Below, one piece after another: positions 28,745 through 61,585 of a stretch of 64,000 bases of DNA. Both the position numbers and the translations under genes were made by a program. Under the pieces are notes generated by a model that worked only from the letters and a program-made list of their open reading frames with translations, did not search any database and was not told the DNA's origin. Origin of the DNA: a virus. The stretch spans positions 683 to 64,682 of IMG/VR virus record IMGVR_UViG_2902229301_000001; one strand, given 5' to 3'. The first letter of the stretch is position 1. The number at the start of each line of letters is the position of its first letter.

Positions 28745-28775
28745 GCCGGAATGTTTAGCCACGTCCGGCGCGTGG
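28745..28775 (-). ncRNA. Putative H-type pseudoknot element, copy 1
   Basis: CCACG-C-GCCGGA-CGTGG-CTAAACAT-TCCGGC; copies at 29564-29594 and 61557-61585 with covariation. Confidence 0.65.
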
Positions 28776-28780
28776 TTTTG

Positions 28781-28789
28781 TGATAGGCT
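28781..28789 (+). promoter_or_regulatory. Extended -10 promoter for antisense gene X1
   Basis: TG-A-TAGGCT; equivalents at 29592-29600 and 61591-61599. Confidence 0.55.
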
Positions 28790-28827
28790 TCAAGTGCTAC
28801 CAATCAACCAACCACAAAGGGAAATTT

Positions 28828-29295
28828 ATGGAACTTAATCTAACTTCCTGTCTTCGCACTTATAACCGTATTTCTGCTAATATCGCCAGTGCTTTAAAAA
28901 TTGATAATCCAGACAATACAAAGATTGCTCCATTTATAACTAATCGCTCTCTAATTATTTTTAAGCTTGAGCTTATTCTTTTTTATCACCGTGAAGAATT
29001 CGATAAGGAACGTAAAATTCTTTCTGGTGTAAATGCACTCACTCATTATTTGTTTTACAAAAAAAATGTATCCATTTTAGATGCGAGAAATATTAGGTTG
29101 CATGATGCAATAGTTATCTTATGTGATGAAATCAACCGCTATGTAATTCCAAATAATGTAATTAATTTCATCATCGAACATGGTGATAACTACAGTTCAT
29201 CCGATGAAAATATATCTCAACTTACGGAAAGGTTCTCTTCTTACATAAATAATGAATGGGATGCTAATTTTGCTGATGAACTACTTCGGCAATAA
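28828..29295 (+). CDS. Hypothetical AT-rich protein X1 (possibly ECs1072-family), antisense to early operon
   Basis: ATG at 28828 after AAAGGG RBS; family guess from memory only. Confidence 0.7.
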   Translation: MELNLTSCLRTYNRISANIASALKIDNPDNTKIAPFITNRSLIIFKLELILFYHREEFDKERKILSGVNALTHYLFYKKNVSILDARNIRLHDAIVILCDEINRYVIPNNVINFIIEHGDNYSSSDENISQLTERFSSYINNEWDANFADELLRQ

Positions 29296-29539
29296 ATTCG
29301 TCGAGTTCAGCTAACCTTTTTTCCGATTCATCAGCATTAGCCCGCAGCTTTTCAGGTTTTCCACGGAGAGAACTGCGGGTATCCAGTGTATCAGCGGTTT
29401 CACGCAGGAATTTAATCAACTCACCATCGCTCAACCCTGCGCTGAAAATTTTAGGTCGTTTTTGAGCCTCTACCTCTGCACCTACAGCACATTCCCTGGT
29501 GTTGGACTGTGCGCTCAGATGATGATTTTCTTGTGTCAT
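29264..29539 (-). CDS. Hypothetical protein Y1 (MTQENHH...)
   Basis: GGAG RBS; first 22 codons shared with Y2. Confidence 0.7.
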   Translation of the reverse strand: MTQENHHLSAQSNTRECAVGAEVEAQKRPKIFSAGLSDGELIKFLRETADTLDTRSSLRGKPEKLRANADESEKRLAELDEFIAEVVHQQN

Positions 29540-29540
29540 A
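29474..29540. repeat. 67-bp direct repeat copy 1 (copy 2 at 30022-30088)
   Basis: CTCTGCACCTACAGCAC...GGTGTTGGACTGTGCGCTCAGAT.ATGATTTTCTTGTGTCATA. Confidence 0.9.
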
Positions 29541-29563
29541 TATTTCTCCATTTTTAAGTATGT

Positions 29564-29594
29564 GCCGGAGTTTTTAGCCACGTCCGGCGCGTGG
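29564..29594 (-). ncRNA. Putative H-type pseudoknot element, copy 2
   Basis: CCACG-C-GCCGGA-CGTGG-CTAAAAAC-TCCGGC. Confidence 0.65.
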
Positions 29595-29633
29595 TATCCT
29601 CACTGCTCTCACACAAAGTAAGGATGTTATGAA

Positions 29634-29840
29634 ATGACAAACAAAGAACTACAAATAAAAGAAACTGGTGAAGTGATAAAAGCTGCATTAAATAATGGTT
29701 CTCTCCAGCAATTATCTCAGTTAGTTGCAAATCAGCTTCCGGCTAGAAGTGATGGTTCATTCCCCGCACACAACTCAATTACTTTCGAAGAGTTGTACGC
29801 AACCGTATTCAATGCAGTAGGCAAAGCTATCAAGTCTTAA
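29634..29840 (+). CDS. Hypothetical 68-aa protein X2, antisense to early operon
   Basis: AAGGA RBS; TGGTATCCT extended -10 upstream. Confidence 0.65.
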   Translation: MTNKELQIKETGEVIKAALNNGSLQQLSQLVANQLPARSDGSFPAHNSITFEELYATVFNAVGKAIKS

Positions 29841-30087
29841 CCGCTGATCCAGATAGCACATTGCAAGACTCTGTTTCTGCTGCCACTGCTAGTGTCAGAA
29901 TAATTTTTATATCTCGGCTGAAGACCTTTTTTCCAAGCTCTTCAGCCTTTTTATTAATACTTTCCGTAAGGCTGGCTGCGATACTCAGTCGCTCATTATT
30001 TTCCAATACCCCCAAGTTCTTCTCTGCACCTACAGCACGATCCCCGGTGTTGGACTGTGCGCTCAGATCATGATTTTCTTGTGTCAT
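29830..30087 (-). CDS. Hypothetical protein Y2 (MTQENHD...), first gene of early operon
   Basis: Directly downstream of the early promoter; shares N-terminus with Y1. Confidence 0.65.
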   Translation of the reverse strand: MTQENHDLSAQSNTGDRAVGAEKNLGVLENNERLSIAASLTESINKKAEELGKKVFSRDIKIILTLAVAAETESCNVLSGSAVKT

Positions 30088-30088
30088 A
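30022..30088. repeat. 67-bp direct repeat copy 2
   Basis: Near-identical to 29474-29540. Confidence 0.9.
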
Positions 30089-30089
30089 A

Positions 30090-30155
30090 TGGTATGTTGT
30101 GATCCACTGTTAGCCTGTGAAAATCATTATGAGATCTATTGATCTCTTTTGTCAA
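30090..30155. promoter_or_regulatory. Face-to-face lytic/lysogenic promoters with operator
   Basis: Minus strand TTGACA (30150-55)-N18-CATAAT (30126-31); GAGATC-N4-GATCTC palindrome 30131-30146; plus strand TGGTATGTT 30090-98. Confidence 0.6.
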
Positions 30156-30164
30156 GGTAGAAAA

Positions 30165-30557
30165 GTGACTTTTAGATCTCTTTGTGTCGAGCGACTGAAA
30201 TCCGAACGGAAACGGCTATCCCTGAATCAGGCAGATGTGGCCGAATTGTGCGGAGTGTCGAGGGAAACATGGGGTAAATACGAAAGGGGCTCTATGGTGC
30301 CAGGAGGAGATGTTTTGCTCTCTTTTGCCATGGCGGGAGCAAACATCCAATTTGTTCTGACTGGTGAAGAATCTGGCGGTGTTGCTCTTTCGCGAGATGA
30401 AATTGAACTGGTCAAAAGCTTTAGAGCGGCTCCTTTGGCAGTAAAAGCTGCTGCGCTGGGCGCATTGACGGCGGGTAGCTCTGCAACAGCATCGATAAAC
30501 GTAACGGGTAGCGGCCAGCGTGTAGCGGGCAGGGACTATCACGAAGGTAAGAAGTAG
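30165..30557 (+). CDS. cI: XRE-family immunity repressor
   Basis: ERLKSERKRLSLNQADVAELCGVSRETWGKYERG HTH; GTG start at 30165 preferred. Confidence 0.88.
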   Translation: MTFRSLCVERLKSERKRLSLNQADVAELCGVSRETWGKYERGSMVPGGDVLLSFAMAGANIQFVLTGEESGGVALSRDEIELVKSFRAAPLAVKAAALGALTAGSSATASINVTGSGQRVAGRDYHEGKK

Positions 30558-30579
30558 CGAAGCATCAAGGATGTAATGG

Positions 30580-31182
30580 ATGACCGTAGAGGCTCAAGGG
30601 GATAGTAATCGGGTCGCAGGACGTGATTATTACGAAAAAAATATCAATATTGCCGCCCCACAAACTAAAGAAGATTTGCGCCCGTTGGTTAGCGCACAGC
30701 GTTCCCAATTAAACCAACTGGTAAAAGATATTGCGGAAGCAGGGCGTGAAGATGTGCGTTTTGTTTGGCGGCGTTTACATGCTGAGCTTGGTGTGAATGG
30801 TATTGAAGAAATCACCATCAGCCAGTATTCCACGGCGCTAAGTTTCCTGAATGCATTACATGATCGCAGTCGGGAAAAGGATGCTAATAACAAATTAGTG
30901 TCCCAATTATTAAGAAGCACACAGCAGAACGAATTACGTGAACAGCTTACGCGGTTCTGTCACATCAATTTTGGTACAAGCCGGTTAATTGATTTAACTC
31001 GCCCCCAGCTTCAGCAAGCAATGAGATGGCTGGATGAACGGCAGGGCAGAACTACACCCAATGCATCACCCCCAAAAGCGCAGACGTGGCAAGATGCGGT
31101 AAATACCTTAAAAGCAGAACCTCGGATTTTTGGCGCAGTGCTTGCGACGGGTATCGTGCTGGGAATGTTGTTGGCGCATTGA
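30580..31182 (+). CDS. Membrane-anchored protein with N-terminal RVAGRDY motif and ORF6C-like segment
   Basis: C-terminal TM (IFGAVLATGIVLGMLLA); VWRRLH..LGV..I.EI...QY..AL.FL. Confidence 0.7.
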   Translation: MTVEAQGDSNRVAGRDYYEKNINIAAPQTKEDLRPLVSAQRSQLNQLVKDIAEAGREDVRFVWRRLHAELGVNGIEEITISQYSTALSFLNALHDRSREKDANNKLVSQLLRSTQQNELREQLTRFCHINFGTSRLIDLTRPQLQQAMRWLDERQGRTTPNASPPKAQTWQDAVNTLKAEPRIFGAVLATGIVLGMLLAH

Positions 31183-31230
31183 TATCAGTTTCTCTAAGAA
31201 TATAAATTTAACTATATTAGCGAGCTAATC

Positions 31231-32061
31231 ATGACTGATGAAAATACCTCTGAAAATGATAAGTCTTCTGGAAATAATAAAGTCGCGGAAACTATTAATG
31301 CTGTGACTGGGCTTACACAGTCAGTGCCAGTGTATCAGGATTTGATACAGCCAGCAGCGCAGGAGCTAGGCAAAGGTCTTGCGGTTATTGCCAAATCAAT
31401 AAATGTTGCTCTTTCGCCGTTAAGCGTAATGGTTTGGGGGTATGAAAAGATTCAAGATCAGTTTATGCCTAAAGTGGCCGAAAAATTAAAAAATACCAAG
31501 CCAGAAGATATCATCACACCTAAACCCAATGTTGCGGTTCCTGCGATTGAAGCATTACGGTATACGGCAGATGATGAGTCTTTAAGTGATTTGTTTGCAG
31601 GGTTACTATCTTCTGCTATGGATAAAAATAAATCAAGCAAAGCACACCCTGCCTTCGTTGAAATTATTAAGCAATTAACAGCAGATGAAGCGAAAATAAT
31701 TACAGTAATCAAAGATAAAAGGGGGATTCCGTTAATAGATATTGTTGTTTTTAATGATGAAATTAATTCTCAAAATATTGTCTATAGCAATCTTTCTTCT
31801 TTTTCATTTGGGAGGGGATTGGAACAACCACAACAATTCTCATCTTATGTTTATAACTTATGTCGACTTGGGTTACTTGAAATACCAGCAGAGTATATTT
31901 ATCTAGACTCCGATGTTTATGATGAAATTATCAATAGTTCCTTTTGGAAGGAGGTGAGTGACGCTGTGAAGTTAAAAGAAAATCAAAGCTTTCATTATGA
32001 TAGAAAAGTATTAACTATTACAGCTATGGGGAAACAGTTTATATCTGTGTGTATTGGTTAA
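31231..32061 (+). CDS. DUF4393/Abi-alpha family protein
   Basis: PAAQELG, PKPNVAVPAIE...LF..LL.SAMD, HPAFVEIIKQLT.DEA, L.RLGLL. Confidence 0.8.
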   Translation: MTDENTSENDKSSGNNKVAETINAVTGLTQSVPVYQDLIQPAAQELGKGLAVIAKSINVALSPLSVMVWGYEKIQDQFMPKVAEKLKNTKPEDIITPKPNVAVPAIEALRYTADDESLSDLFAGLLSSAMDKNKSSKAHPAFVEIIKQLTADEAKIITVIKDKRGIPLIDIVVFNDEINSQNIVYSNLSSFSFGRGLEQPQQFSSYVYNLCRLGLLEIPAEYIYLDSDVYDEIINSSFWKEVSDAVKLKENQSFHYDRKVLTITAMGKQFISVCIG

Positions 32062-32090
32062 CTAGTCATTTCCATATAGAGCAATCGAGA

Positions 32091-33101
32091 ATGAGTGTAA
32101 GCAAACTCCCATCTGGCAAATGGCTTTGCCAGTGCTTCCCTTATGGCCGTGATGGTAAACGTATCCGCAAACAGTTCGCCACCCGTGGCGAGGCGCTTTC
32201 CTATGAGCGCCGCCTTATGGCCGATAAAAAAGGCATTGATACCACAACCAGTAATATCACTCTGAAAGATTTGGTTCAGCGCTGGTATGACATGCACGGT
32301 AAAACGCTATCGTCCGGTGATTCTCGCTATACGAAATTACTCGCTATCTGTGAACGTTTGGGCGATCCGTTTGCTATCGACGTTGATAAAAATATGTTTG
32401 CCGTGTACCGAGAACGACGCCTTAAAGGTGAGTGGAATCCGAAGGGGAAAGCCGTTCTGAAAGAAGCAACGGTTAACCGTGAATACTCTTACCTGCGTGC
32501 GGTCTTTTCCGAGCTGAAAAGGATGGGGGAGTGGGACAAAGAAAATCCGCTGGATGGTATACGCCAATTCAAAGAAGGTGATCAGGAGCTGGCATTTCTC
32601 TATCCAGATGAAATAAAGCGCCTGCTGGCTGCGTGTGATGAATCAGATAATAAAGATTTGGGTATCATCGTTCGTCTGTGCCTGGCGACAGGAGCACGGT
32701 GGGGGGAGGCGCAAGATTTAAGACAGTCTCAAATCCTGCCAAACCGCGTTACTTTCACCAGGACGAAAGGCAACAAGAACAGAACGGTGCCCATTTCGGA
32801 AAAGATGCGCAGCCTGTTGCCTAAAAAACGCGGAGCACTTTTCACTCCAGCTTATGAGTCTTTCAAGTACGCCATTAAACGTGCAGGCATTGAACTACCG
32901 GGCGGGCAGCTTACCCACGTTTTACGTCACTCATTCGCATCACACTTCATGATGAACGGCGGAAACATTCTGGTACTGCAACAGATTTTAGGCCACAGCA
33001 CTATCACCATGACAATGCGTTACGCCCACTTTTCGCCGGATCATTTGGATGCGGCCGTTACCTTAAACCCATTTGATAATATTGATAAGGAACTTTCATG
33101 A
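32091..33101 (+). CDS. int: Tyrosine integrase (186/HP1-type)
   Basis: LATGARWGE, TK..K.R, HVLRHSFASH, LGHS.I.MTMRY catalytic residues. Confidence 0.97.
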   Translation: MSVSKLPSGKWLCQCFPYGRDGKRIRKQFATRGEALSYERRLMADKKGIDTTTSNITLKDLVQRWYDMHGKTLSSGDSRYTKLLAICERLGDPFAIDVDKNMFAVYRERRLKGEWNPKGKAVLKEATVNREYSYLRAVFSELKRMGEWDKENPLDGIRQFKEGDQELAFLYPDEIKRLLAACDESDNKDLGIIVRLCLATGARWGEAQDLRQSQILPNRVTFTRTKGNKNRTVPISEKMRSLLPKKRGALFTPAYESFKYAIKRAGIELPGGQLTHVLRHSFASHFMMNGGNILVLQQILGHSTITMTMRYAHFSPDHLDAAVTLNPFDNIDKELS

Positions 33102-34267
33102 CTAAGCCAGATTTGGATTATGGTGCAATCTGTATTGATAATTCCAGCTTAAAAAGCTTGGGTTACAAATTTGAAGAAGGCCTGCTTTTTCAATTACGCC
33201 AATTTAAAAATAGTTCAATAAAGTTAATCCAGCCGGATGTTATTCATAAAGAAATAATAAAGCATTTATCAAACCCCATTCATGAGTTGGATAAAAACTT
33301 TGATAAAATGATTAAAGATTTAAATAGATTGGTTGGTGCCGATATAGATACTGTTACTAGTATAGTTTCCGAACTGAAAAAATTTACAAATGCTGAATTA
33401 ATAACAAAGGATAGAGTTAATAAATTTTATGAAGAAGTTAATGGGGAGGTTTTAAAATGCTCTGAGCATCTTGATGTTAATTTGTTGCTTGATATGTATT
33501 TTGATATTGACGCTCCATTCGAAGATAATAAAGAAAAGAGAAAAGAATTCCCTGACGCTATTGCGTTACTTAGTTTAGAATCTTGGGCTGTTAAACAGGG
33601 GTTCAAAGTAATTATTGTCAGCAATGATAATGGGTGGATGAATTACGCAGACACTTCTGAAAATTTAGTGTTTTTTAAAGAGCTACCCGATGCGCTTGCG
33701 GAAATCCAGCCGCATGCGGAAGCCCAAAAAATAATAAAACTATTAATGGAATCCGATTTTATTCTTGATAGTAATAATTTAATCAGTGAGATATCAGAGC
33801 TTATAGAAGCAGAAGTTAACGGTGTTGATCCATGGGTAGTGTCTATTGATGCAACATCAGATCAAATCTATGACTATGATGATATTACAGTGGAGTATAC
33901 TACATGTGATGTTTTAGTAAAAAAAGAATCGAGAGATACACCAATAAAAATAATAAAAATAAATAGTGACGAGATAGTTTTAAACCTAACAATAAAAATA
34001 TTTTGTAATGTTAGTGCTTCTTTTGATTTTTCTGTGGAGGATGGAATTGATCATGATTATGTTTCTGTGGGCTCCTCGAGGGAAACGGTATCGGCCGATT
34101 TCATTACTGATGCTATCTTAACAATTTCAGGAGATTTTTCAGCGGGAGTTGAAGCGCTCAGTGTTGATAATGTGGAACTGCAAGGGTTTTTATCTTCCGT
34201 TGACTTTGGTTATATAGAACCTAGTTATGAAGAATACTTTGACTATGAAGAAGAGTCGGAACAGTGA
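33098..34267 (+). CDS. PIN-like domain protein (DUF4935/PIN_12-like)
   Basis: ICIDNSSL, PDVIHKEI, PF...K.EFPDA...LSL, IVSND.GW; acidic C-terminus; AT-rich. Confidence 0.75.
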   Translation: MTKPDLDYGAICIDNSSLKSLGYKFEEGLLFQLRQFKNSSIKLIQPDVIHKEIIKHLSNPIHELDKNFDKMIKDLNRLVGADIDTVTSIVSELKKFTNAELITKDRVNKFYEEVNGEVLKCSEHLDVNLLLDMYFDIDAPFEDNKEKRKEFPDAIALLSLESWAVKQGFKVIIVSNDNGWMNYADTSENLVFFKELPDALAEIQPHAEAQKIIKLLMESDFILDSNNLISEISELIEAEVNGVDPWVVSIDATSDQIYDYDDITVEYTTCDVLVKKESRDTPIKIIKINSDEIVLNLTIKIFCNVSASFDFSVEDGIDHDYVSVGSSRETVSADFITDAILTISGDFSAGVEALSVDNVELQGFLSSVDFGYIEPSYEEYFDYEEESEQ

Positions 34268-34491
34268 GGTTAACCTTTATAGTATATAGCCAGTCATAAT
34301 ACTCTGCGCGGTTGTTAGAGCCTGATTTTTGAGTCCAGTGCATGGTAGTGCGGTTGGTAAGTGTTATGTGCTGTATGCTTAGTAACTAGTATATCTGTTA
34401 ATTAGATATGAATAATAGAACAGCCTAAGGACATAGAATCAGTGGCAGCAAAAACGAGCATAGCGCAATATTTCGTACAATACCGTAATTG

Positions 34492-34504
34492 CAACTCATT
34501 GATA
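34492..34504 (-). promoter_or_regulatory. IHF site in att arm
   Basis: TATCAATGAGTTG fits WATCAR-N4-TTR; a second, 1-mismatch site at 34616-34628. Confidence 0.6.
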
Positions 34505-34542
34505 TCATTTAACCTATTGTTTTATTTAATGTGGTGTAACTT

Positions 34543-34597
34543 TTTAAAATCCCTCGGCGTTCGCGCTGTGCGGGTTCAAGTCCCGCCCCGGGCACCA
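34543..34597 (+). repeat. att core = 3' half of tRNA-Leu(TAA), leuZ-type; junction between prophages
   Basis: TTTAAAATCCCTCGGCGTTCGCGCTGTGCGGGTTCAAGTCCCGCCCCGGGCACCA; 5' acceptor/D arms absent. Confidence 0.9.
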
Positions 34598-34642
34598 TTG
34601 ATTTAAAAAGAATTAAAACAAGCACTTATGTGCAATGTCGTG

Positions 34643-34665
34643 AACCGCCGAGAGGCGGTTTTTTT
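34643..34665 (+). terminator. Phage-supplied terminator after tRNA 3' end
   Basis: AACCGCC-GAGA-GGCGGTT-TTTTT. Confidence 0.8.
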
Positions 34666-34681
34666 GTGCCTGAAAAATAGC

Positions 34682-34714
34682 AAGTGGCGGCAAAATGGCG
34701 ACAGAGTGGCGACG
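34682..34714 (+). repeat. Three 11-bp-periodic TGGCGRC repeats, probable integrase arm sites
   Basis: TGGCG at 34685, 34696, 34707; related TGGCAGCA at 34443 on the other arm. Confidence 0.6.
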
Positions 34715-34808
34715 CTTATTTTGAGTTTATGATAAATGGTTATTGTTATGACTGAAGGATGAGTTATTTATTAAGGCCTGTCTTTTACTAATTATTCATT
34801 TTTATTGA

Positions 34809-35027
34809 TTATACCCACATCTGGAATTGCTTATTAGAAGCAGGGTGGGGTGTCACTGGATCTATCTTCCCAGGCTCAACTATTGAGCGGGTGACGCTTT
34901 CAAGTGTAACAAACGTATGGCCGCAATTGATGTTTGTACATTGGTGATAGCGTTCTTTAGTAGATTCGCTTAAGTAGCGGCTTGAACGAGCATGGGCAGC
35001 ATGTCGGCAGAGTGGGCAATGCATCAT
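34809..35027 (-). CDS. ogr: Ogr late activator
   Basis: MMHCPLC...ERYHQCTNINCGHTF, 72 aa. Confidence 0.95.
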   Translation of the reverse strand: MMHCPLCRHAAHARSSRYLSESTKERYHQCTNINCGHTFVTLESVTRSIVEPGKIDPVTPHPASNKQFQMWV

Positions 35028-35113
35028 AATTTTATCCTTAACTGGCTTTTTTCTATCTAATATTACCATTTAATTCAAATAATGGAATTTTGTTCAAAAA
35101 ATTGATTTTAATC

Positions 35114-36271
35114 TTATTCACTTCCCTCATACTCAATATCAGACAGCAGCACCTCCAATTCCAACGCGGTAACGTATCCTGAATTACTCAAACTGTGCGT
35201 CACTTTTGAGATTGTCCATTCCTGTTCGTCGATCACCTGCTTAAAGCCGCTCACCTGAACAGGGGTTTCCGGGAACAGGTCAGCGCGCCCCATTGCTAGC
35301 GTAATAGAAAACTCCGCGACACCCCGTTGCAGTTTGTCCCACTTTGCCTGTGCGGCACGCATGGCTTGTGCTTTGGTCGCAAATACCGTGGTCAATGCCA
35401 ACACATTTTCATCGGTGCCGACCAGATAATCACCCTCGCGAGCTTCTGGCTCCTTCTTTGTCTTTTTCGATTTAGGGTGTGGCTTCTGGGGTTGTGGCCC
35501 TTGATGCAATAGCACTTTCTTCTGACGTTTTACCTTTACCGTTTTCGGTTTTTCATGCTGCGGCTCTTTGGTATGCAGCCAGCTTGCCGTGACGCCTGTG
35601 TACGCGCCCCGGTCAGCCAGACTAAAACTGTGCTGATCGCCGTCGCTGCGCTCAATTATCTGCTGCGGGATAGGTTTGCCGCTGGCCGTCTTCCCCGTTC
35701 CAGGACGGATAAACAGCAAACGCCCGGCCTTGATCGCCACTATTGCCCCGTTGCGCTCAGCCAGCCGGGTAATAAATACCGCGTCGGTTTCCTGCGTCTG
35801 GTCGATGTGCGGAATTTTTATCCCCGCGAATCCGTCGGCCAGCATCGGCGCAAGATTGTTACGCTTCGCCACCTGTTCAACAATCGCCCCCAGCGTCATA
35901 TCGTGATACGACTGCTCACGCCGGGCGTTCAGCGACCCGCGAAAATCGGCACTCCGCGCCCTGATGGTGAGCGTATCCGGCGTGCCACGGTGTTCTATTT
36001 CATCCACCGTAAAATCGCCTTTGCCGATCAGCGCGTCTCCTTCCCAGCCCAAAAACACCGACAGCACCGCGCCCCGGCGGGGTAACTGCAACAGCCCGTC
36101 GCTGTCGTCCAGCTCGATGTCGAGCTGATCGGCTTCAAATCCCCGGTTATCGGTCAGGCTCAGTGACAACAGGCGCGGACTGATAACGGTCGTGATGTCC
36201 TGCTCATTGAGTCGCAGCAGGTACGCGGGAGCGATTTTACTGCCAGCGCGAACATTCAGCGGGTTAATCAT
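35114..36271 (-). CDS. D: Late control/tail protein D
   Basis: LTDNRGFEADQLDIELDD. Confidence 0.93.
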   Translation of the reverse strand: MINPLNVRAGSKIAPAYLLRLNEQDITTVISPRLLSLSLTDNRGFEADQLDIELDDSDGLLQLPRRGAVLSVFLGWEGDALIGKGDFTVDEIEHRGTPDTLTIRARSADFRGSLNARREQSYHDMTLGAIVEQVAKRNNLAPMLADGFAGIKIPHIDQTQETDAVFITRLAERNGAIVAIKAGRLLFIRPGTGKTASGKPIPQQIIERSDGDQHSFSLADRGAYTGVTASWLHTKEPQHEKPKTVKVKRQKKVLLHQGPQPQKPHPKSKKTKKEPEAREGDYLVGTDENVLALTTVFATKAQAMRAAQAKWDKLQRGVAEFSITLAMGRADLFPETPVQVSGFKQVIDEQEWTISKVTHSLSNSGYVTALELEVLLSDIEYEGSE

Positions 36272-36753: not shown

Positions 36754-36757
36754 CGAA

Positions 36758-39433: not shown

Positions 39434-39608
39434 TGTTATGGTGTCCGCTGCGTTTCAGCGCTTTGTCGCGCCACAAAATCAACTCGGTGAGGGTCATCGG
39501 GTACAGCTCGGATGGCGGCCAGTGAAAAATCACTGCGATATCCGCCATCAGCTCATCAACACTCAGGCTTCGGGGTAGTCCGCCTGTTGCGATTTCGGCG
39601 TCAAAAAA
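39426..39608 (-). other. -1 frameshift site (TTTTTTG at 39602-39608) and E' extension
   Basis: The -1 frame reads DELMADIAVIFHWPPSEL, stop at 39426-39428. Confidence 0.85.
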
Positions 39609-39859: not shown

Positions 39860-39926
39860 GATGTTGCCTCTGTGTTCAAATAGAAAATAGAAAGAAGTCG
39901 GCCAGCACCGTGCTGGCCGGACAGGG

Positions 39927-51281: not shown

Positions 51282-51330
51282 TGTTTTTCCTGTTCTTTCT
51301 GAAAAAGGGGTTAGCGGGGCAGCGCCCCGA

Positions 51331-52185: not shown

Positions 52186-52324
52186 TTTCTCATCCGTTGT
52201 TTGCGGGAAGTCGGGGCGAGTATCCGGCGTGACATCCTGCCGCGCCATCAATCACGGTTCGCTAACCGCTGGCACAACAGGCACTTAAGGCGGGAATGGT
52301 CGGCGCTGACGTAGCCTTGCCGTC

Positions 52325-55110: not shown

Positions 55111-55113
55111 CGA

Positions 55114-55140
55114 ACGAGGCCACCGATACAGTGGCCTCGT
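55114..55140. terminator. Hairpin between convergent Q and hicB
   Basis: ACGAGGCCAC/GTGGCCTCGT stem. Confidence 0.6.
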
Positions 55141-55142
55141 CA

Positions 55143-55484
55143 TTATGAATGCCGTTCAATGACGAGATCGACACCTTCATTTAACAGTTCGTTAATTGAC
55201 ACCCCGTTAGCCTGTGCCGTTACTGCTAACGCTGCGTGGCGTTCCGGTGTGAGGCGTGTAGTCACTTTACCGCTGTATGATTTATACGGTTCAATGCCAT
55301 CATTACGGCACTCATCAAGAAATACGGCAAGCGATGTGGCACCTTCTTTTTTTAACTCTTCCACGCTGTAAGCATAGAAATCCGCGCCGCCGTTAAGACC
55401 GACAAATTCCCCACGAAACATCTCAATTTCTGGGTCAAAAGCGATGACGGCCGTGTGGCCGTCGATTTGCAGTGTATTAATCAT
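55143..55484 (-). CDS. hicB: HicB-family antitoxin
   Basis: G.TAVI.FDPE..MFRGEFVGLNGGADFY...YSGK..RLTPE.H. Confidence 0.9.
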   Translation of the reverse strand: MINTLQIDGHTAVIAFDPEIEMFRGEFVGLNGGADFYAYSVEELKKEGATSLAVFLDECRNDGIEPYKSYSGKVTTRLTPERHAALAVTAQANGVSINELLNEGVDLVIERHS

Positions 55485-55735
55485 GGCCTTATTCCTAAAC
55501 TGTCTAACCATACCCGAATGGAGTTAACCGCTCCCTTGTCAGTGGTTGGTCTAGGGTGGGGACGATGAAAAATTCTTTTCTCACCCTTCAGCAGTACCGC
55601 AACCCTTGAACCTTCCCTTTCATGTACTTCTGCACCCAGCGCGATAAACAAAGATTCAATATCGTTCCACTTTATCGAGCCGCTAACTGGGCGGGAAAAT
55701 ATATCTGACAGTGTTTTCTGGTGTCGTTTGTTCAT
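55481..55735 (-). CDS. hicA: HicA-family toxin
   Basis: HQKTL..IF..P....IKW.DIE.LF..LG...EGSRV...HRPHP. Confidence 0.92.
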   Translation of the reverse strand: MNKRHQKTLSDIFSRPVSGSIKWNDIESLFIALGAEVHEREGSRVAVLLKGEKRIFHRPHPRPTTDKGAVNSIRVWLDSLGIRP

Positions 55736-55759
55736 AGAAGAATATACCATGGAAAGTCC

Positions 55760-55790
55760 ACTTATGGTATCACTATATGATACCATAAGT
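55760..55790. promoter_or_regulatory. hicAB operator palindrome
   Basis: Perfect 13-bp IR ACTTATGGTATCA-N5-TGATACCATAAGT just upstream of hicA. Confidence 0.7.
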
Positions 55791-55827
55791 GTTTTTAGTG
55801 TCATTATTTGGTGTCACATTATAATTA

Positions 55828-56490
55828 CTATTGTGACAGTAAACCACACTCTGATCGCTTTTCTTTCAATAACCGCATCAGCAGGTTAATGGTATCAATC
55901 GCAGAACTATACTCACGATCCAGCATGGGGAACAGCTTCTGGATATGCGGCCAAAAATCCGTTGTCAGGTAATCGACGGAGTGGAATAACGCATTGAGTT
56001 GCGTGATTTCCCGGTGGTTGAAGGTGAGTGTGGCTTCAGGAATATAGAATTCCAATTCGCAAGGGTGAACAGGCTTTTTCTGTTCGGGCTGAACGGCTTT
56101 AGCCTGTGGGTTGAAGTAGCTTTCTTCCAGCCACTCGAACACATCCCACGCCTGATCGGTTTCAAGCATCTTCGCGTGACGTGCTGCGCCGCGTTCCGTC
56201 CAGAGGATGAGGCTGCGAGCTTGCCTTGCGACAGACTGACTATCTGTCAGTCTGTTTTTAAATTCTCGTAAATCAGTACCTTCCAACTTGAAATAATGTT
56301 TACCGTTAATGAAGCGAGTAGCATTGCGTTTGAAGTTCTGCTGAATACTATTCACGTTAGCACCGTACAGATTCGCCAGCAGATCGGTAGTAATGACAGG
56401 AAAACCTTTGTGGGCGATGACAGACAGGGATTCAACGGAAACTGAACCAACGGACGTGTTATGTAAAACCATTTCGTTTACACTATTCAT
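55828..56490 (-). CDS. ORF6N-domain antirepressor-like protein
   Basis: VITT.LLA.LYG.....QNF.RN..RF..GKHYFKLEG..L, LWTERGAARHAKMLETDQAW. Confidence 0.88.
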   Translation of the reverse strand: MNSVNEMVLHNTSVGSVSVESLSVIAHKGFPVITTDLLANLYGANVNSIQQNFKRNATRFINGKHYFKLEGTDLREFKNRLTDSQSVARQARSLILWTERGAARHAKMLETDQAWDVFEWLEESYFNPQAKAVQPEQKKPVHPCELEFYIPEATLTFNHREITQLNALFHSVDYLTTDFWPHIQKLFPMLDREYSSAIDTINLLMRLLKEKRSECGLLSQ

Positions 56491-56562
56491 GTCTTTTATC
56501 CTTGCTTGGATGGGGACGAAATAGAGACCCTGACTGTTACCGCAGTTGGGGTCTCGTCATTT

Positions 56563-56620
56563 ATGGTATCCATTGGCTACCATATGTTGAAATGTTAGTA
56601 TCCATGGGCTACCATGTCAA
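56563..56620. promoter_or_regulatory. Overlapping divergent promoters with two Arc-type 21-bp operators
   Basis: Minus TTGACA-17-TAACAT; plus TTGAAA-17-TACCAT; ATGGTATCCATTGGCTACCAT (56563-83) and TTAGTATCCATGGGCTACCAT (56595-615). Confidence 0.7.
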
Positions 56621-56646
56621 CACAATATTTGAACAGAGTAATTGGC

Positions 56647-56958
56647 ATGGGTACGAAGAGAAATCCACAATTCAATGTCAGAATACCGCCAGAACTAAAA
56701 GAGAAGGTAGTAACACTGGCAGAAAGAAATAAACGGTCAGTGAATGCTGAGATTGTTGCTGCGCTTGAACTTGTGTGTAGAAAAGCGTTTGGTGAAATTA
56801 TTGAGCATGACGCTGGGGTAGAGATCGTTCTGAATGAGCATGAATCTAAGCTGCTTGAATCATCTATTGAAACATTGAAGAAAGTATCTGAAACGGAAAA
56901 AAAACTTGATGAGTTAATGGCTGAACTGAAGAAGCTAAATAGCGAAAGGGGACAGTAA
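56647..56958 (+). CDS. Arc/Mnt-family RHH repressor with C-terminal coiled coil
   Basis: PQFNVRIPPELKE.+...AERN.RSVNAEI. Confidence 0.88.
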   Translation: MGTKRNPQFNVRIPPELKEKVVTLAERNKRSVNAEIVAALELVCRKAFGEIIEHDAGVEIVLNEHESKLLESSIETLKKVSETEKKLDELMAELKKLNSERGQ

Positions 56959-57145
56959 AAAGGCCACAATCCGTGCTCACCAAATGCCGCCTAACCCGCG
57001 GCTTTTTTACACCCGCTCAAACCTCACCAATCGCGTTCTACACGCACCAGTGAAAAACCAACCCCACGCACGATATCAGAGTAGAACACATCACAGCGAG
57101 GCGCAGCGGCACGGGATGAATCGCGTCTAAACGCCCTTGCGCGCA

Positions 57146-57164
57146 ATGCTATCCCCGCCACGCC
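57146..57164 (-). other. cos site of prophage 2
   Basis: GGCGTGGCGGGGATAGCAT, very close to the 186/P2 19-nt cohesive end. Confidence 0.8.
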
Positions 57165-57309
57165 TGCCCGCTTTGTGTGTCGCTTTTCATGCAGTTGCAC
57201 GATCCAGCGCGATCCATGTAGGGCAGGGCGTCATAAGGTTTTTGAGCTAAGGGATCCTGCATGCAAATTCATGCACATCCATGCGATGAGCACGGCATAC
57301 TTTATAGCG

Positions 57310-57498
57310 TTAATTTTTAGTGTCGTAAACAGTAGTTGGACTCACCAGGCCATGTGTTTTTAGTTCGACCTCGACCAGGTGGGATATGGTAGCTAACGCT
57401 GTCTGTAGGTCTTTCTTGTCGCAATCAGCTACTAACGCTATCTCAGCGATAAATTGCACACGAGAAAGTGCAAGCTGTGCGTTTTCTAAGGTTTCCAT
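57310..57498 (-). CDS. tum: Tum-like SOS antirepressor (short form)
   Basis: RV..IA......C...D...AL..I pattern resembles the 186 Tum N-terminus; position after A; LexA box upstream. Confidence 0.65.
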   Translation of the reverse strand: METLENAQLALSRVQFIAEIALVADCDKKDLQTALATISHLVEVELKTHGLVSPTTVYDTKN

Positions 57499-57510
57499 AC
57501 TATTCCTTTT

Positions 57511-57530
57511 TACTGTTCTTATATACAGTA
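57511..57530. promoter_or_regulatory. LexA (SOS) box overlapping a minus-strand promoter
   Basis: TACTGT-TCTTATAT-ACAGTA; TTGACT-17-AATACT. Confidence 0.85.
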
Positions 57531-57646
57531 TTTTTCAAAATGAAACGGCAGTCAATAAATTATTCAACGTGTTGTAAATTAAAGATTAAACCGTTTTATT
57601 GGTGATTCTGATACATCAGCGAAGTGCTAATAGCCTGGTATCCAAG

Positions 57647-59947
57647 CTATTCCAGGAAACTCTCACTAAACCCCGGCCACTCATCAGCCGCCGGATATGA
57701 AATAAGTTCACCGTCTATCTTCATTTTTGCCCCACGCGCCAGCGCTTCCAGCTCCCAGCGTTGAACACTGATACCACGCTGCATCAAATCACGCTGAATA
57801 TGAGGTATCCGCTCCCGTTCTTCGCCCGTTAATCTGGCCGACGGTGACGGATCGCGGAGGGTATTGGGGTTAAAGTCGCGTTGTTTATGATTCTTCCTGA
57901 CGGATTGCTCACGTAGACGCATTCCTAGCGCCCTCACAGCCGCGTTGTCACTCCAATCAATCGGTGGGTTATCGGTTTCTAATGTCGTTGCTATGCTGCT
58001 GTTTTCGGCCTGCTTTTTGACATCTGCGCCCGACCGTTGAGAACCCAACCCACAGTTATTGACAGGACTCCGAGGCGCGCCGGGGGCGCTTTTTAAAGTC
58101 AAAGGCTCAACGGCAACGGCTTTAGAAACGATGCGCCACTCGGTTGTCCGGGTTTCAAAAACATGTCCTTCGCCCAAGTGCGGGGCGAAAATCCCGACAA
58201 CCTTTTGCACCTCTTCGTCATACTCGTTGAGCTTGTCCGACACCCGGCGCGCAACGCGTACCGTTTGCAGCTCACGGGAAACATTCGCGCCGCCCTGTGC
58301 GGCCATGTAGGCGTCAAATTTGCCCGCGTCAGCAGCACAGCGAACCGCCTCGACCTGTTCGTCGAACTGGTCAGTAAGATTGACGCTGCGTAACGTGCCG
58401 CTTCGGCACTCGCGGTACGCGCCCATTGTGGGGATACCGATAGCTTTAAATTGAGGGATGCGCCACGTTGACGCCCACGCAGTGACGGCGGCGGCCATGT
58501 CCCGCAGTGGCTTTCCGGTGTCTTTGTCGATCTCGCCATCGAGCGCGTAGCCATCGATATTTTTGGCGATGTACTTAGCAATATAGCCAGCGGCACCGCC
58601 TTTATTGAGGTGTTTACATTCAAAGCGGTATGTTGCTGCGCCGCGTTCGTTGCCGTCTTCTTTCAGGGCATAGCGACGCATAATATCGATGACTGACTGA
58701 CGATGCGCGCGCTTGCAAAACAACATCATGTGCCAGTGAGGTGTTCCGTCGTGATGTGGTTCGACAACGCGCATCCCGTACACCTTCAGGTCGTTGTCCT
58801 TAAATGCTGTGCGCATCTTGCCCCATATCTTCACTAGATAGCGCTGGCCGTCTTTCGGCGTAAAGGCTTCATTGTCCCAGCTTCGGTTAAACTGGACTTT
58901 CTCGTTAGCGCTGCCCTTGCCGATCACGCGGGTCGGGTGATACTTCGACGGCGTGGTGATAGTGATAAACATCCCGACATCTCGCTGTTCGCTGGCGTAA
59001 CGCTCAATCCCGGCGATGGTACTCATCAGTTCCATACGGCGGATTTCAGGGTTGGATATACTCGCCATTACCTTGTCGATCAGGTCGATACGTTCGCCTG
59101 TTGCGACGTTCTCCAGCTCACAGTTTTTCAGGTAATCCATATTGGCGAGGCGACGCGACTGTACATCGCGGATCGCCATCTTGCTGGCATACGGGGACGC
59201 CTTTTTACTGACCTGACCGACTGCAATATTCAACGCCTCACGCCAGCGGGTGCGTTGGGCTTTAAGCTGTCGAGTCCACCATTCCTCATTAATCAGGCGG
59301 GAAATGCTGGCTATCGCTTTGCGTATATTCAGCGTTCCTTTGCGGTAGTTCTTCCAGAAAAGCGGAGTGATATTGAACGCACGCGCCATGCTGGCGACAT
59401 GGCCGAAAAGCTCGGTCTGTGCCGCGTCGGTAAAGAGTGCGTCCGGCTGGCCGCCGAGCTGCGCTTTCATGGCATCGCTCATTTCCTCATACGCAGAAAA
59501 TATCTGGCCGGAAATACGCGCAGCCAGACGCCCCAGCGCCTTGTCATTCATGCCGGGTAGCGTTTGATAAGCGTCAGATTCAGACAGGAAACGCTCGGAG
59601 GCGTGGCGGTTCATGGCATGGCGGGCATTGATCGCCTCAATACGCGGCCACATGCGCTGCATAAAACTGTTAACCAGAAAACGATGGGCGCTGAGCTGGC
59701 CTTTATTCTTTTGCAGGTAAACGTAGCGACTCAGGCAGATTTCGCGCAAGAAGTGCGGTTGTTGGTTAATTTTCGCTAAAACGGCTTGCCCCTGAGTCCA
59801 TTCCTCACGGGTAAGCTGCCTTTCTTCCGGCACGATGGCCGGGCGGGGGGCGTTCCACGGATACGCACCCACGAACGCATCGCGGGTGCTGCCGGGGAAA
59901 GGTGGCGGCGGGGTGGGAGCGGAGCGCCCTCGGCGGGTGGCGGTCAT
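57647..59947 (-). CDS. A: Replication initiator A
   Basis: TITTPSKYHP, EPHHDGTPHWH, YIAKYIAKNIDGY. Confidence 0.96.
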   Translation of the reverse strand: MTATRRGRSAPTPPPPFPGSTRDAFVGAYPWNAPRPAIVPEERQLTREEWTQGQAVLAKINQQPHFLREICLSRYVYLQKNKGQLSAHRFLVNSFMQRMWPRIEAINARHAMNRHASERFLSESDAYQTLPGMNDKALGRLAARISGQIFSAYEEMSDAMKAQLGGQPDALFTDAAQTELFGHVASMARAFNITPLFWKNYRKGTLNIRKAIASISRLINEEWWTRQLKAQRTRWREALNIAVGQVSKKASPYASKMAIRDVQSRRLANMDYLKNCELENVATGERIDLIDKVMASISNPEIRRMELMSTIAGIERYASEQRDVGMFITITTPSKYHPTRVIGKGSANEKVQFNRSWDNEAFTPKDGQRYLVKIWGKMRTAFKDNDLKVYGMRVVEPHHDGTPHWHMMLFCKRAHRQSVIDIMRRYALKEDGNERGAATYRFECKHLNKGGAAGYIAKYIAKNIDGYALDGEIDKDTGKPLRDMAAAVTAWASTWRIPQFKAIGIPTMGAYRECRSGTLRSVNLTDQFDEQVEAVRCAADAGKFDAYMAAQGGANVSRELQTVRVARRVSDKLNEYDEEVQKVVGIFAPHLGEGHVFETRTTEWRIVSKAVAVEPLTLKSAPGAPRSPVNNCGLGSQRSGADVKKQAENSSIATTLETDNPPIDWSDNAAVRALGMRLREQSVRKNHKQRDFNPNTLRDPSPSARLTGEERERIPHIQRDLMQRGISVQRWELEALARGAKMKIDGELISYPAADEWPGFSESFLE
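58052..58080 (-). other. P2-type rolling-circle ori
   Basis: GCGCCTCGGAGTCCTGTCAATAACTGT matches the P2 ori. Confidence 0.8.
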
Positions 59948-60153
59948 TGATGATCGCGCATCACTGATTCAACACGCGCCATTAATGCCGCCTGCATTTC
60001 TTCCGGCATCTCTGGTGTGCCGGGCTGGCCGATACCTGCAAAAAAATCACTAATTTCACTTAGAACCAGTTGAGTTAAATCGTCTGTGTCTCGCTCTGAC
60101 TCGACAATCTCTCTCACCATTGCGTACCCCACGAGGCTAGAACGGCGGCTCAT
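59944..60153 (-). CDS. Hypothetical early protein
   Basis: Coupled overlaps with both neighbours. Confidence 0.6.
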   Translation of the reverse strand: MSRRSSLVGYAMVREIVESERDTDDLTQLVLSEISDFFAGIGQPGTPEMPEEMQAALMARVESVMRDHQ

Positions 60154-60461
60154 AAATCTTGCCCCTTATCGTTATTGAGCTGGTCAAAGGCTGACTGGCA
60201 CAGCGCCGCAAAGCGTTTGCTTTCTGTCAGCAGCTTCTTTGAGTCGGTGACATTGCCGCGCCAAATTTCGGTGGCGATAGCACGATGCACAAAATCGTTA
60301 ATCAGGCTGACGGGATTCTGATAAACGGCCAGCGTGGATAAATACGGCTGATCGCCGTCTTCTTTCCCGCATTTGATTTCGCCCAGCGCAAAGTCATAGC
60401 CGACTTTCGCTATTGCATAATTACCGTTGATATCAACGCGGTTATAAGCGGGGTTTTCCAT
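60150..60461 (-). CDS. DUF5405-like early protein
   Basis: I...+AI....F.L.E.K......YL.TL..Y.....LI pattern; synteny. Confidence 0.55.
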   Translation of the reverse strand: MENPAYNRVDINGNYAIAKVGYDFALGEIKCGKEDGDQPYLSTLAVYQNPVSLINDFVHRAIATEIWRGNVTDSKKLLTESKRFAALCQSAFDQLNNDKGQDL

Positions 60462-60709
60462 TACATCACCGCCTTAATATCTGAACCGGAATTATTAAAG
60501 GCGTCGGATTCCTGCCGTAATAATTCGATAATTTCCACACTGCTTAATTCGTGGATAGCGGCATGAGTCGCCAGCTTATCCAGACGTGAAGAAAAAGACG
60601 TGTGTGCATCGGCTTTCGCCTCGGTGCGTGCCTGAGAAAGCATTAACTGAATGCCCTCGCTTTCAGCCTTGCGATGCATCGCCTGACCGACTGTTTTATA
60701 CATGTGCAT
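60461..60709 (-). CDS. DUF2732-like early protein
   Basis: LSQARTEAK....FSSRLDKLA....S.VEIIELLRQE. Confidence 0.75.
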   Translation of the reverse strand: MHMYKTVGQAMHRKAESEGIQLMLSQARTEAKADAHTSFSSRLDKLATHAAIHELSSVEIIELLRQESDAFNNSGSDIKAVM

Positions 60710-60771
60710 ATAATCCTCAGATAAAGGGAGTCCCGACGCGGTTAAGCGCCTAATTAATTTCAGGTGGTTAT

Positions 60772-61272
60772 TTAATTCAGATATTCTTCGGGTTTAATTG
60801 CCGTCAGAATGTCGGGGGCAGCATCAAATAAACTCACAAGCTCATTTAATGCGCGTAATATTAGTTTACGCCATTGGCATGATTCATCGTCAATACGCCA
60901 ATAAGGTTGATTAAATTCTTTTTCAGTTAACCCCGCGTGCATAAATAAGGTTTTTCTCTCGCCGACATTTAACCAGCTCAGAAACGTTGACGTATTCACA
61001 CCACGGATGCGACCTTTTGAGAAAGCCCGGCGCAGTTCATCAATGGCGCAGACAATCCGCTCACGCTCTGCGGTTGGCATTTCCTCCAGACGGTAAACGG
61101 TCTGGCTCTTTTTCATCTGCGCATGAAAGCAGAGGGTCAAACGGTCACGCTCATGCAGGCTATTGTAATACGCGCAGATTTCACGCCAGCGGCTATCAGC
61201 AAAGTGCTTGCCGATCACGTTGCGCAGCCCAGCGGGTAAATTCTGCATACTGCTGACGGTAAAGGCTGTCAT
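60772..61272 (-). CDS. B: Replication protein B-like
   Basis: LPAGLR..IG.HF...RW...C..Y.S...RLTLCFHA, IV.AIDELR. Confidence 0.8.
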   Translation of the reverse strand: MTAFTVSSMQNLPAGLRNVIGKHFADSRWREICAYYNSLHERDRLTLCFHAQMKKSQTVYRLEEMPTAERERIVCAIDELRRAFSKGRIRGVNTSTFLSWLNVGERKTLFMHAGLTEKEFNQPYWRIDDESCQWRKLILRALNELVSLFDAAPDILTAIKPEEYLN

Positions 61273-61502
61273 GCTTTCCCCCTCAGTCCAACAATACGGT
61301 GCAATAGCGATATTAGTCGCAACGGCAACGCACGATGTTTTTGTTCAGGCATATAAGGCTTACTGCTCCACGGAGCGAAATAAACCTGGTGAGGTTTTGG
61401 CTGGCAGCGTTGACCATTCGACAGCTCAAACCAGCCTTTACCCTGGTTCATCAGTCCCGGTGCAGGCGACTGACTAATGAGTAAACGAGCAATGGAAATC
61501 AT
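61269..61502 (-). CDS. fil: Fil-like (DUF2724) protein
   Basis: MISIARLL..QSPAP...GW..L.NG.R..P. Confidence 0.7.
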   Translation of the reverse strand: MISIARLLISQSPAPGLMNQGKGWFELSNGQRCQPKPHQVYFAPWSSKPYMPEQKHRALPLRLISLLHRIVGLRGKA

Positions 61503-61556
61503 TGTTTTCCTCCTTCCTATTGGTAACCGCCCACGTATAGGCGGTTGCGAATAGGT

Positions 61557-61585
61557 GCCGGGTTTTAGCCATGCCCGGCGCATGG
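61557..61585 (-). ncRNA. Putative H-type pseudoknot element, copy 3
   Basis: CCATG-C-GCCGGG-CATGG-CTAAAA-CCCGGC; both stems covary relative to copies 1 and 2. Confidence 0.65.

Follow-up and report, generated by a model that had tools for sequence, protein, structure and literature searches.

Why does the same small pseudoknot occur three times on the minus strand of the window (the whole 64,000-nucleotide stretch of viral DNA analysed here), each time beside the start of a gene of opposite orientation? The first-pass annotation had described three minus-strand copies, and both their coordinates and their sequences proved exact. Copies 1 and 2 read CCACG-C-GCCGGA-CGTGG-N8-TCCGGC in full, and copy 3 reads CCATG-C-GCCGGG-CATGG-N6-CCCGGC. 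Scanning the window with a degenerate 22-mer returned exactly these three sites, against 0.00 expected from 100 shuffles; chance predicts none. The covariance model, run with its filters off, found no fourth copy in the window. With model R1, the three copies scored 63.3 bits (E 8e-18), 60.1 bits and 46.5 bits, respectively. Together with their neighbours they are arranged as follows.

28523–28714, minus strand: RHH gene, the first lytic-strand gene past copy 1, 30 nt downstream
28745–28775, minus strand: pseudoknot copy 1; S1 CCACG/CGTGG, L1 C, S2 GCCGGA/TCCGGC, L3 CTAAACAT
28781–28789, plus strand: candidate extended −10 of the X1 promoter (TGATAGGCT), read from the sequence, 5 nt from copy 1
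28825–29295, plus strand: X1, counter-oriented accessory gene, 156 aa
29264–29539, minus strand: Y1, lytic-strand gene, 24 nt past copy 2
29564–29594, minus strand: pseudoknot copy 2; stems as in copy 1, L3 CTAAAAAC
29592–29600, plus strand: candidate extended −10 of the X2 promoter (TGGTATCCT), its TGG being the complement of the first bases of copy 2
29634–29840, plus strand: X2, counter-oriented accessory gene, 68 aa
30126–30155, minus strand: putative early lytic promoter of prophage 1, TTGACA-18-CATAAT, from promoter scan and sequence
61269–61502, minus strand: fil-like gene, 54 nt past copy 3, named by similarity seen by eye
61516–61555, minus strand: variable hairpin CCTATT...AATAGG, directly past copy 3 and ending at the fil Shine-Dalgarno
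61557–61585, minus strand: pseudoknot copy 3; S1 CCATG/CATGG, S2 GCCGGG/CCCGGC, L3 CTAAAA
61591–61599, plus strand: candidate extended −10 of the X3 promoter (TGGTAGGAT), from the sequence; the RNA-seq ends of the X3 mRNA lie nearby
61638–61826, plus strand: X3, counter-oriented accessory gene, 62 aa, strongly transcribed in a lysogen

The start codons 24–54 nt downstream of the copies had been noted before and are confirmed at the distances listed. Absent from that earlier entry was the start of a divergent plus-strand gene 39–52 nt from each copy, and each copy abuts the extended −10 promoter of this gene. A transcript from the putative promoter at 30126–30155 would run through Y2, antisense to X2, across copy 2, through Y1, antisense to X1 and across copy 1; no match to a sigma-70 promoter adjoins any of the three copies on the element strand. 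The copies were rejected as intrinsic terminators: a scan calls none at the three sites, and on the minus strand S2 is not followed by a run of T. As for the neighbouring genes, a homologue of the RHH gene gave a weak Pfam RHH_5 match (19.6 bits, under the family cut-off of 26), and a different downstream gene family, L020, matches Pfam Phage_186_Fil. Hairpins or terminators occupy the position of the copy-3 hairpin in related contexts. Homologues of X1, sought as examples of a cassette without the element, were found neither in the phage collection nor in IMG/VR.

The compensatory stem changes described in the first-pass annotation are borne out, and a much larger sample shows them too. Among related copies that were not selected by the exact pattern (the covariance-model sample), 99.6% of cells are paired, as against 94.2% in shuffles and 29–38% when the partners are slid, and in 7 of the 11 pairs both partners have changed, a result matched by 0 of 500 shuffles. 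A larger second set, derived from the pattern itself, is paired in 98.8% of cells and has four covarying pairs. The wobbles bear on the strand: all those in the covariance-model sample are G·U on the element (lytic) strand, while the pattern-derived set holds eight element-strand G·U wobbles against at most three A·C or C·A cells, which correspond to wobbles of the opposite strand and were tallied only as "other", their identity being read from the rows. The first S1 pair occurs as the series C-G, U·G and U-A, with the G·U intermediate on the element strand, and two lambda-type variants likewise have G·U on that strand. Pairing and wobble data together support the original proposal of a conserved, covarying H-type pseudoknot acting as an RNA of the minus (lytic) strand.

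Several structural leads were discarded. Upstream folding energies, compared between the strands, made the element strand the more stable in 56 of 75 contexts, but this comparison is confounded by G+U richness and was not used. A long-range helix of TTTGTGGT with ACCACAAA, which seemingly enclosed an inner hairpin, was dropped as evidence for a larger structure because TTTGTGGT is the TRTG of the extended −10 and ACCACAAA belongs to a generic CA-rich leader that precedes start codons in many unrelated phage contigs. A preQ1-like riboswitch, considered for the size of the element and its downstream terminator, was set aside on structural reasoning, since the 6-bp G+C stem 2 would be expected to fold even with no ligand bound, and we saw no alternative pairing that would involve the terminator.

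More than 100 phage contigs in IMG/VR carry related copies, as do 82 of 5426 complete E. coli genomes; of the 151 Enterobacteriaceae species sampled, 21 have them. The carriers include temperate phages of both the P2-like and the lambdoid family. By script, the start of a divergent gene lies upstream in 114 of 125 contexts, mostly at 33–100 nt, and inspection revealed one in most of the others; the backwards genes adjoining the element fall into at least 33 families, and such a gene is missing upstream in a few copies (the L036 family, the third copy of L111, and L104). The extended −10 motif TGnTAnnnT stands at an offset of −3 or of +4 to +6 in 75 of 115 unique contexts. Downstream, 121 of 125 contexts have a lytic-strand start codon, at 18–38 nt in 57 of these; the genes that follow belong to at least 44 unrelated families, among them Cox, DUF4761, DUF5347, Fil, TerB and RHH. 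Many lambdoid-type contexts have an intrinsic terminator 12–17 nt past the element, resulting in a layout of antisense segment, pseudoknot and terminator, and in type (a) contexts and HK225 the next gene is beyond the terminator. Terminator-like sequence follows the element in 42 of 115 contexts, P2-like contexts being mostly without one. Flank homology is shared on the upstream side only in 52 context pairs and on the downstream side only in 66. The linkage of the element to the X side is no tighter than that to the downstream gene: both flanks recombine about equally often.

Stranded RNA-seq of a relative of the window prophage, from uninduced cells of a lysogen, located the 5' ends of the X3 mRNA downstream of the element. 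Fragments of this mRNA end at 61617/61618, and the depth drops from above 100 to below 5 towards the element. Minus-strand transcription across the element is absent in the uninduced lysogen, which is expected under repression and is uninformative. The element is on the lytic-operon strand and directly borders, on the outer side, the promoter of a prophage-expressed gene that faces the other way.

The same arrangement occurs in lambda and P22, which carry, around lambda 34397–34428 and P22 29653–29684, a diverged form of the element adjoining sieB (ACCAC-CGA-GCCTG-AY-GTGGT-TAAAAGA-CAGGC). Both helices are kept in this form by compensatory changes, for example from GCCGG/CCGGC to GCCUG/CAGGC. 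The P22 form scores just 11.3 bits with model R1, so its homology to the canonical element rests on position and structure; in the P22-like phage MW790496, the canonical form is found at the exact position of the P22 form. With the sieB transcript start annotated at 29727, the P22 element lies outside the sieB mRNA, and it ends 6 bp from the annotated sieB promoter. The nutL site is annotated apart from it, at 30816–30849. An antisense RNA of this region, sas, is already known from P22 (Ranade and Poteete 1993, as cited in PMC12197685), and according to reviews it switches sieB translation from SieB to Esc (PMC12197685, PMC7067206). Small-RNA-seq detected sas as a 127-nt RNA at 1321 RPM in infected cells (PMC13397905, Table 2), and it is for P22 only that accumulation of the discrete small RNA is documented (PMC13397905). 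On mapping, this RNA begins at the complement of the sieB start codon, spans the element and stops 17 nt beyond it, short of the next gene. By its position and its compensated helices, the element is homologous in sequence and structure to the 3' part of P22 sas RNA.

We favour, as modestly probable, the reading that the element makes up the structured 3' domain of antisense RNAs of the sas type, which are cut from the lytic transcript and silence or re-programme the backwards gene. P2-like and lambdoid temperate phages carry small accessory genes (X) inserted backwards in long lytic operons, each X being transcribed in the lysogen from its own promoter. When induction or superinfection fires the surrounding operon, read-through would produce RNA antisense to the 5' UTR and start codon of X, and the transcript would next cross the X promoter region and then the pseudoknot. 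In P22, that stretch accumulates as discrete sas RNA and shifts sieB translation; Ranade and Poteete reportedly described sas in 1993 as being cut out of the read-through operon transcript. By analogy, we infer that copies 1–3 may do likewise for X1, X2 and X3, and that sas-like RNAs would be made in P2-like phages. Where a terminator is absent, we can only infer that the pseudoknot would define and protect the 3' end of the processed antisense RNA, possibly through blocking 3'-to-5' exonucleases. A bolder version, which we consider rather doubtful, would make the pseudoknot a self-contained, portable module by which any lytic read-through becomes a stable small RNA, with the pseudoknot as a bacterial exoribonuclease-resistant cap and with trans-silencing of exclusion or defence genes of resident prophages through shared leaders. 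Many cassettes share one leader, so antisense RNA from an incoming or induced phage could silence genes of resident prophages in trans; if true, the portable module would be a general RNA-based counter-defence key common to P2-like and lambdoid phages.

The downstream gene offers another candidate partner, and a gene-32-like translational operator or enhancer had been proposed in the first-pass annotation. More broadly, the element could be a leader at or near the 5' end of a processed downstream mRNA, serving as operator, enhancer, standby site or 5' stabiliser. This would suit the lytic-strand start codon that follows in nearly all contexts, the A/U-rich spacer, which resembles the T4 gene 32 leader, and the few copies that sit between co-directional genes without a backwards gene. 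Yet the unrelatedness of the families that follow excludes autoregulation by the downstream product, terminators separate the element from the next gene in type (a) contexts and HK225, and the abundant P22 RNA ends so soon after the pseudoknot that a downstream mRNA fragment would be without it. We find a leader function unlikely in general. The gene-32-like operator or enhancer is unlikely for the same reasons, and its autoregulatory T4 type was rejected on account of the unrelated downstream families and the lack of a single-stranded DNA-binding protein: no match to an SSB domain was obtained among the ten commonest downstream families scanned. A DNA-level operator or upstream element of the backwards-gene promoter, with a host or phage protein binding the two overlapping dyads, is in our view quite improbable. 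It would account for the outward-facing promoter that always abuts the element, for the short distance to the sieB promoter in P22, and for the activity of the backwards-gene promoter in lysogens while the lytic strand is silent. Against it, the element occupies at least three position classes that are out of helical phase (dyad centres at about −21, −29 and −53, by our own reading), two interleaved covarying dyads with one-strand G·U intermediates fit a dimeric DNA-binding protein poorly, the lambda and canonical forms differ in sequence with pairing kept, and some copies persist without a backwards gene. A sigma-70 element or operator of fixed phase was likewise discarded, the offsets being −3, +4 to +6 or, for sieB-type promoters, about 30 bp further.

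That the element marks mosaic joints among many gene families, with homology breaking about equally on both sides, is what one would expect of a recombination linker, a short shared sequence kept for cassette swaps by homologous recombination and having no RNA role. A linker needs identity rather than base-pairing, though, and the compensatory changes together with the tolerated loop variation favour selection on structure; moreover, 30 nt of identity is short for efficient homologous exchange, and we judge the linker very improbable. We think just as little of a cis-acting RNA that modifies RNA polymerase, in the manner of put- or nut-like antitermination, to carry the lytic transcript past cassette terminators and the convergent promoter. 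It would explain why the element sits just upstream of a terminator in type (a) phages and HK225, where the distal operon genes are still needed, but the element follows the untranslated antisense stretch instead of preceding it, a separate nutL is annotated in P22, and most P2-like contexts have no terminator to be passed. The element has no resemblance to boxA/boxB or to the two put stem-loops, and with neither motif present and nutL annotated separately it was not retained as a nut or put site.

The antisense reading places the element beside several known systems. With sieB-esc-sas of P22 and lambda it shares the pseudoknot architecture, the lytic-operon strand and the position beside the promoter of a counter-oriented prophage-expressed gene, and the P22 element is inside the sequenced sas RNA (PMC13397905). 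The window differs in that the partners are three unrelated small proteins instead of sieB, the operon is a P2-type early operon instead of PL, and the sequence type is CCAYG/GCCGGR instead of ACCAC/GCCTG. The T2/T4 gene 32 operator is likewise a compact H-type pseudoknot: its loop 1 is a single nucleotide, its A-rich loop crosses stem 1, and an A/U-rich stretch leads on to a ribosome-binding site. It differs in having an autoregulated ssDNA-binding protein downstream, where the present element has more than 40 unrelated gene families. Terminators often follow the present element; the two are unrelated in sequence, and the P22 element is near an RNA 3' end rather than an mRNA 5' end. P22 sar and lambda OOP are also short temperate-phage RNAs that pair with an oppositely oriented mRNA and set the balance of lysogenic and lytic expression. 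They have their own promoters and ordinary terminator hairpins, whereas the present element brings a pseudoknot and moves, as a portable module, in the company of many different genes. The definition of morons fits the backwards X genes, which have a promoter of their own and are expressed from the prophage. Classic morons have a promoter and a terminator of their own and no built-in antisense device; here, in contrast, a conserved RNA structure of the opposite strand travels with the X slot.

The element had also been put forward as undescribed. No Rfam family matches it: Rfam 15 scans at gathering score gave no matches for the window and five related loci, and in E-value scans of copies 1 and 2, the P22 region and four related loci the sole overlap was a non-significant one with STnc320 (18 bits against a gathering score of 50, E 1.7). 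We found no description of the sas pseudoknot in the literature. What stands of the claim is the pseudoknot and its spread to P2-like phages, for which no description was found; the RNA that carries it in P22 is known. The element is an undescribed structural part within a known kind of regulator, not a new kind, and builds on the sas paradigm of 1993. The genomes of lambda and P22 belong to the best studied of all, and yet this 30-nt structure beside sieB has neither an Rfam family nor a description that we could find. With it, P2-like and lambdoid prophages can be searched for a widespread accessory-gene slot, and it provides a testable hypothesis of how prophage-expressed exclusion and defence genes may be switched off when their own phage turns lytic. 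As a compact natural pseudoknot with good covariation, it is in addition a candidate RNA-stabilising part.

All three copies of the pseudoknot-like element reported on the minus strand of the window by the first-pass annotation are correctly placed, at 28745-28775 (copy 1), 29564-29594 (copy 2) and 61557-61585 (copy 3), with the next minus-strand start codon 30, 24 and 54 nt away, respectively. A degenerate 22-mer matched three sites in the 64-kb window, which are these copies (chance expectation 0.00), and a covariance model run on the window with filters off did not find a fourth. In IMG/VR the window is recorded as a provirus, and it contains two P2-like prophages. Each copy occupies a divergent intergenic region, where a small plus-strand gene, backwards with respect to the lytic genes, starts 39-52 nt from the element, and where a plus-strand extended -10 (TGnTAnnnT) adjoins or overlaps the 5' edge of the element. 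The divergent genes are:

28825-29295, plus strand: X1, small gene divergent from copy 1
29634-29840, plus strand: X2, small gene divergent from copy 2
61638-61826, plus strand: X3, small gene divergent from copy 3

The minus-strand genes Y1 and Y2 share a near-identical 22-codon N-terminus (29474-29539 and 30022-30087), and Y2 is the first gene past the early promoter (30126-30155) of prophage 1, which carries copies 1 and 2; the appearance of its two Y/X cassettes suggests a tandem duplication or exchange. Since several other prophages also hold two or three element copies within ~1.5 kb (three in L111, two each in L430 and L434/L455), such stacking is recurrent.

The proposal of a covarying H-type pseudoknot was borne out by a model-based alignment of hits from 21 Enterobacteriaceae species and P22. 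Standard pairs filled 99.6% of its cells (column shuffles, 94.2%; partners slid, 29-38%), and 7 of the 11 pairs showed changes on both sides, a number reached by 0 of 500 shuffles. A pattern-derived set, part of which comes from loci fetched by patterns fixing some stem positions, was 98.8% paired with four covarying pairs. The first loop, L1, is C, T, A, G, absent, or CGA/CAA/CTC, and L3 varies from 5 to 8 nt, with three or more consecutive A in all cases; this free variation is the behavior of an H-type pseudoknot and not of a simple repeat. Nested folding predicted the second stem, S2, alone.

Several features assign the functional molecule to the lytic strand. Every wobble in the model-based alignment is a G.U on the element strand; the pattern-derived set contains eight such wobbles, and at most three of its other cells, read by eye from the rows, are A.C or C.A, corresponding to opposite-strand wobbles. 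The first pair of stem S1 runs through C-G, U.G and U-A, the path expected on the element strand. The loop geometry pointed out in the first-pass annotation, with 1 nt crossing the 6-bp S2 and an A-rich loop crossing S1, agrees with its assignment to a minus-strand RNA.

IMG/VR was searched by three exact-pattern scans, each leaving different stem positions free, which together returned well over 100 phage contigs. Discarding chance hits left 149 instances, among which 33 different core sequences were judged genuine. With S1 free, we found CCACG/CGTGG, CCATG/CATGG, CCCTG/CAGGG, TCACG/CGTGG (U.G) and TCACG/CGTGA; with S2 free, GCCGAG/CTCGGC was also seen. Chance matches in high-GC genomes, which served as an internal control, had no second S2 arm and poor S1 pairing. 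The canonical form (CCAYG/GCCGGR type) occurs in 82 of 5426 complete E. coli genomes, in every case without annotation, and genuine matches in the genome collection were exclusively from Enterobacterales (Escherichia, Pectobacterium, Xenorhabdus, Serratia, Pantoea, Brenneria, Sodalis, Kosakonia and Izhakiella). A covariance model built from 22 copies and run on 151 Enterobacteriaceae species genomes, a sample independent of the exact patterns, matched in 21 of them and added CCCCG/CGGGG, GCACG/CGTGC, GCTGGG/CCCAGC, GCCGAG/CTCGGC and G.U variants.

The arrangement seen in the window is general. Among 125 non-identical contexts, a lytic-strand gene start lies downstream of the element in 121 and a divergent gene start upstream in 114, with most of the other 11 also having one on inspection; a few copies are without a backwards gene. 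The upstream genes fall into 33 families, for which a PHROGs comparison gave no known function. Those downstream fall into 44, including Cox, DUF4761, DUF5347, Fil, TerB and RHH, and the suggested translational operator resembling that of gene 32 failed its defining test. Recombination of the flanks is about equally frequent on both sides. Lambdoid phages show a second class of context: the promoter is flanked by two direct repeats, and an intrinsic terminator follows 12-17 nt past the element. HK225 carries the unit of backwards gene, promoter, pseudoknot and terminator between its Q antiterminator and holin genes (L416 1085-1640), the position of stx in Stx phages.

One stranded RNA-seq run (X23), from a lysogen of a relative of the window prophage, covers the region of copy 3 and X3. 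X3 was strongly transcribed (depth 109-260), with fragments ending at 61617/61618, 18-19 nt past the -10, and depth fell below 5 over the element; the backwards promoter is thus active in lysogens and the element lies outside the X mRNA. Contigs of two further RNA runs end at 61632 and 61653. No lytic-strand-oriented reads crossed the element in the lysogen run, in keeping with repression of the early operon. No other feature of 61617-61837 (plus strand) came near X3 (62 aa) in transcription in this run; X3 appears as a short transcript of ~220 nt, many of whose 3' ends fall at 61816-61820, level with or slightly ahead of the stop codon (61824-61826).

A DNA-level site, either an operator or an upstream element of the backwards-gene promoter, would account for an element that neighbors an active promoter in every case. 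Among 115 contexts, 75 have the extended -10 at an offset of -3 or +4 to +6. We consider the DNA reading improbable, as it fails both on spacing to the promoter and on the one-strand wobbles.

The sieB region of P22 and lambda offers another reading. In a P22-like phage, sieB is the backwards gene and starts ~75 nt from the canonical element. P22 and lambda themselves carry a diverged element at the same place, between sieB and the small ORF preceding ral, annotated in neither record:

P22 NC_002371 29653-29684, minus strand: diverged element, behind the same CTGTAGGGGT repeats
lambda NC_001416 34397-34428, minus strand: diverged element, behind the same CTGTAGGGGT repeats
P22 29690-29720: sieB promoter (P22 record annotation)
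P22 29727: sieB transcript start (P22 record annotation)

Both helices of this form (ACCAC-CGA-GCCTG-AY-GTGGT-TAAAAGA-CAGGC) are preserved by compensatory changes, and IMG/VR holds more than 100 copies of the lambda type. The annotated promoter and transcript start leave the P22 element outside the sieB mRNA. It is instead contained in sas, described as a 105-nt cis-antisense RNA switching sieB translation (review PMC12197685; also PMC7067206) and detected in P22-infected cells as a 127-nt RNA at 1321 RPM (2026 small-RNA-seq, PMC13397905 Table 2). Starting from the complement of the start codon of sieB, the latter sequence crosses the repeats and then the element, past which it extends for a further 17 nt.

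We favor, with some reserve, an interpretation in which the lytic transcript gives rise to sas-type antisense RNAs and the element forms their structured 3' domain. During lytic growth, these RNAs would pair with the backwards gene at its leader and start. As the element lies 17 nt from the 3' end of the P22 RNA and other phages use a terminator just after it, the pseudoknot may fix and protect the RNA 3' end where a terminator is absent.

Some neighboring features were also recorded. Around P22 29690-29760 and at loci with a terminator between the element and the next gene (e.g. L007:720-785, L016, L055), 10-12 bp direct repeats spaced by ~33 bp flank the sieB-type -10; they co-vary between phages (gactgtggaa, ctgttgggga, ctgtaggggt), like the operator sites of a regulator. 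In a ~290-nt noncoding stretch of P2/186-like early operons (L036:4969-5254, with L107, L113, L148, L166 and L174), the element, whose first pair is U.G, is accompanied by several long hairpins, a 14-bp A/U hairpin and a terminator-like site, with neither a backwards gene nor an Rfam match; this stretch could represent a longer ncRNA or else a cassette in decay. Finally, a leader with the sequence AACCAACCACAAAGG and an ATG a few bases further on recurs ahead of start codons in many phage contigs that are unrelated (IMG/VR loci L316-L413). It seems to be a strong context for translation initiation that is used generically, not a component of the cassette.
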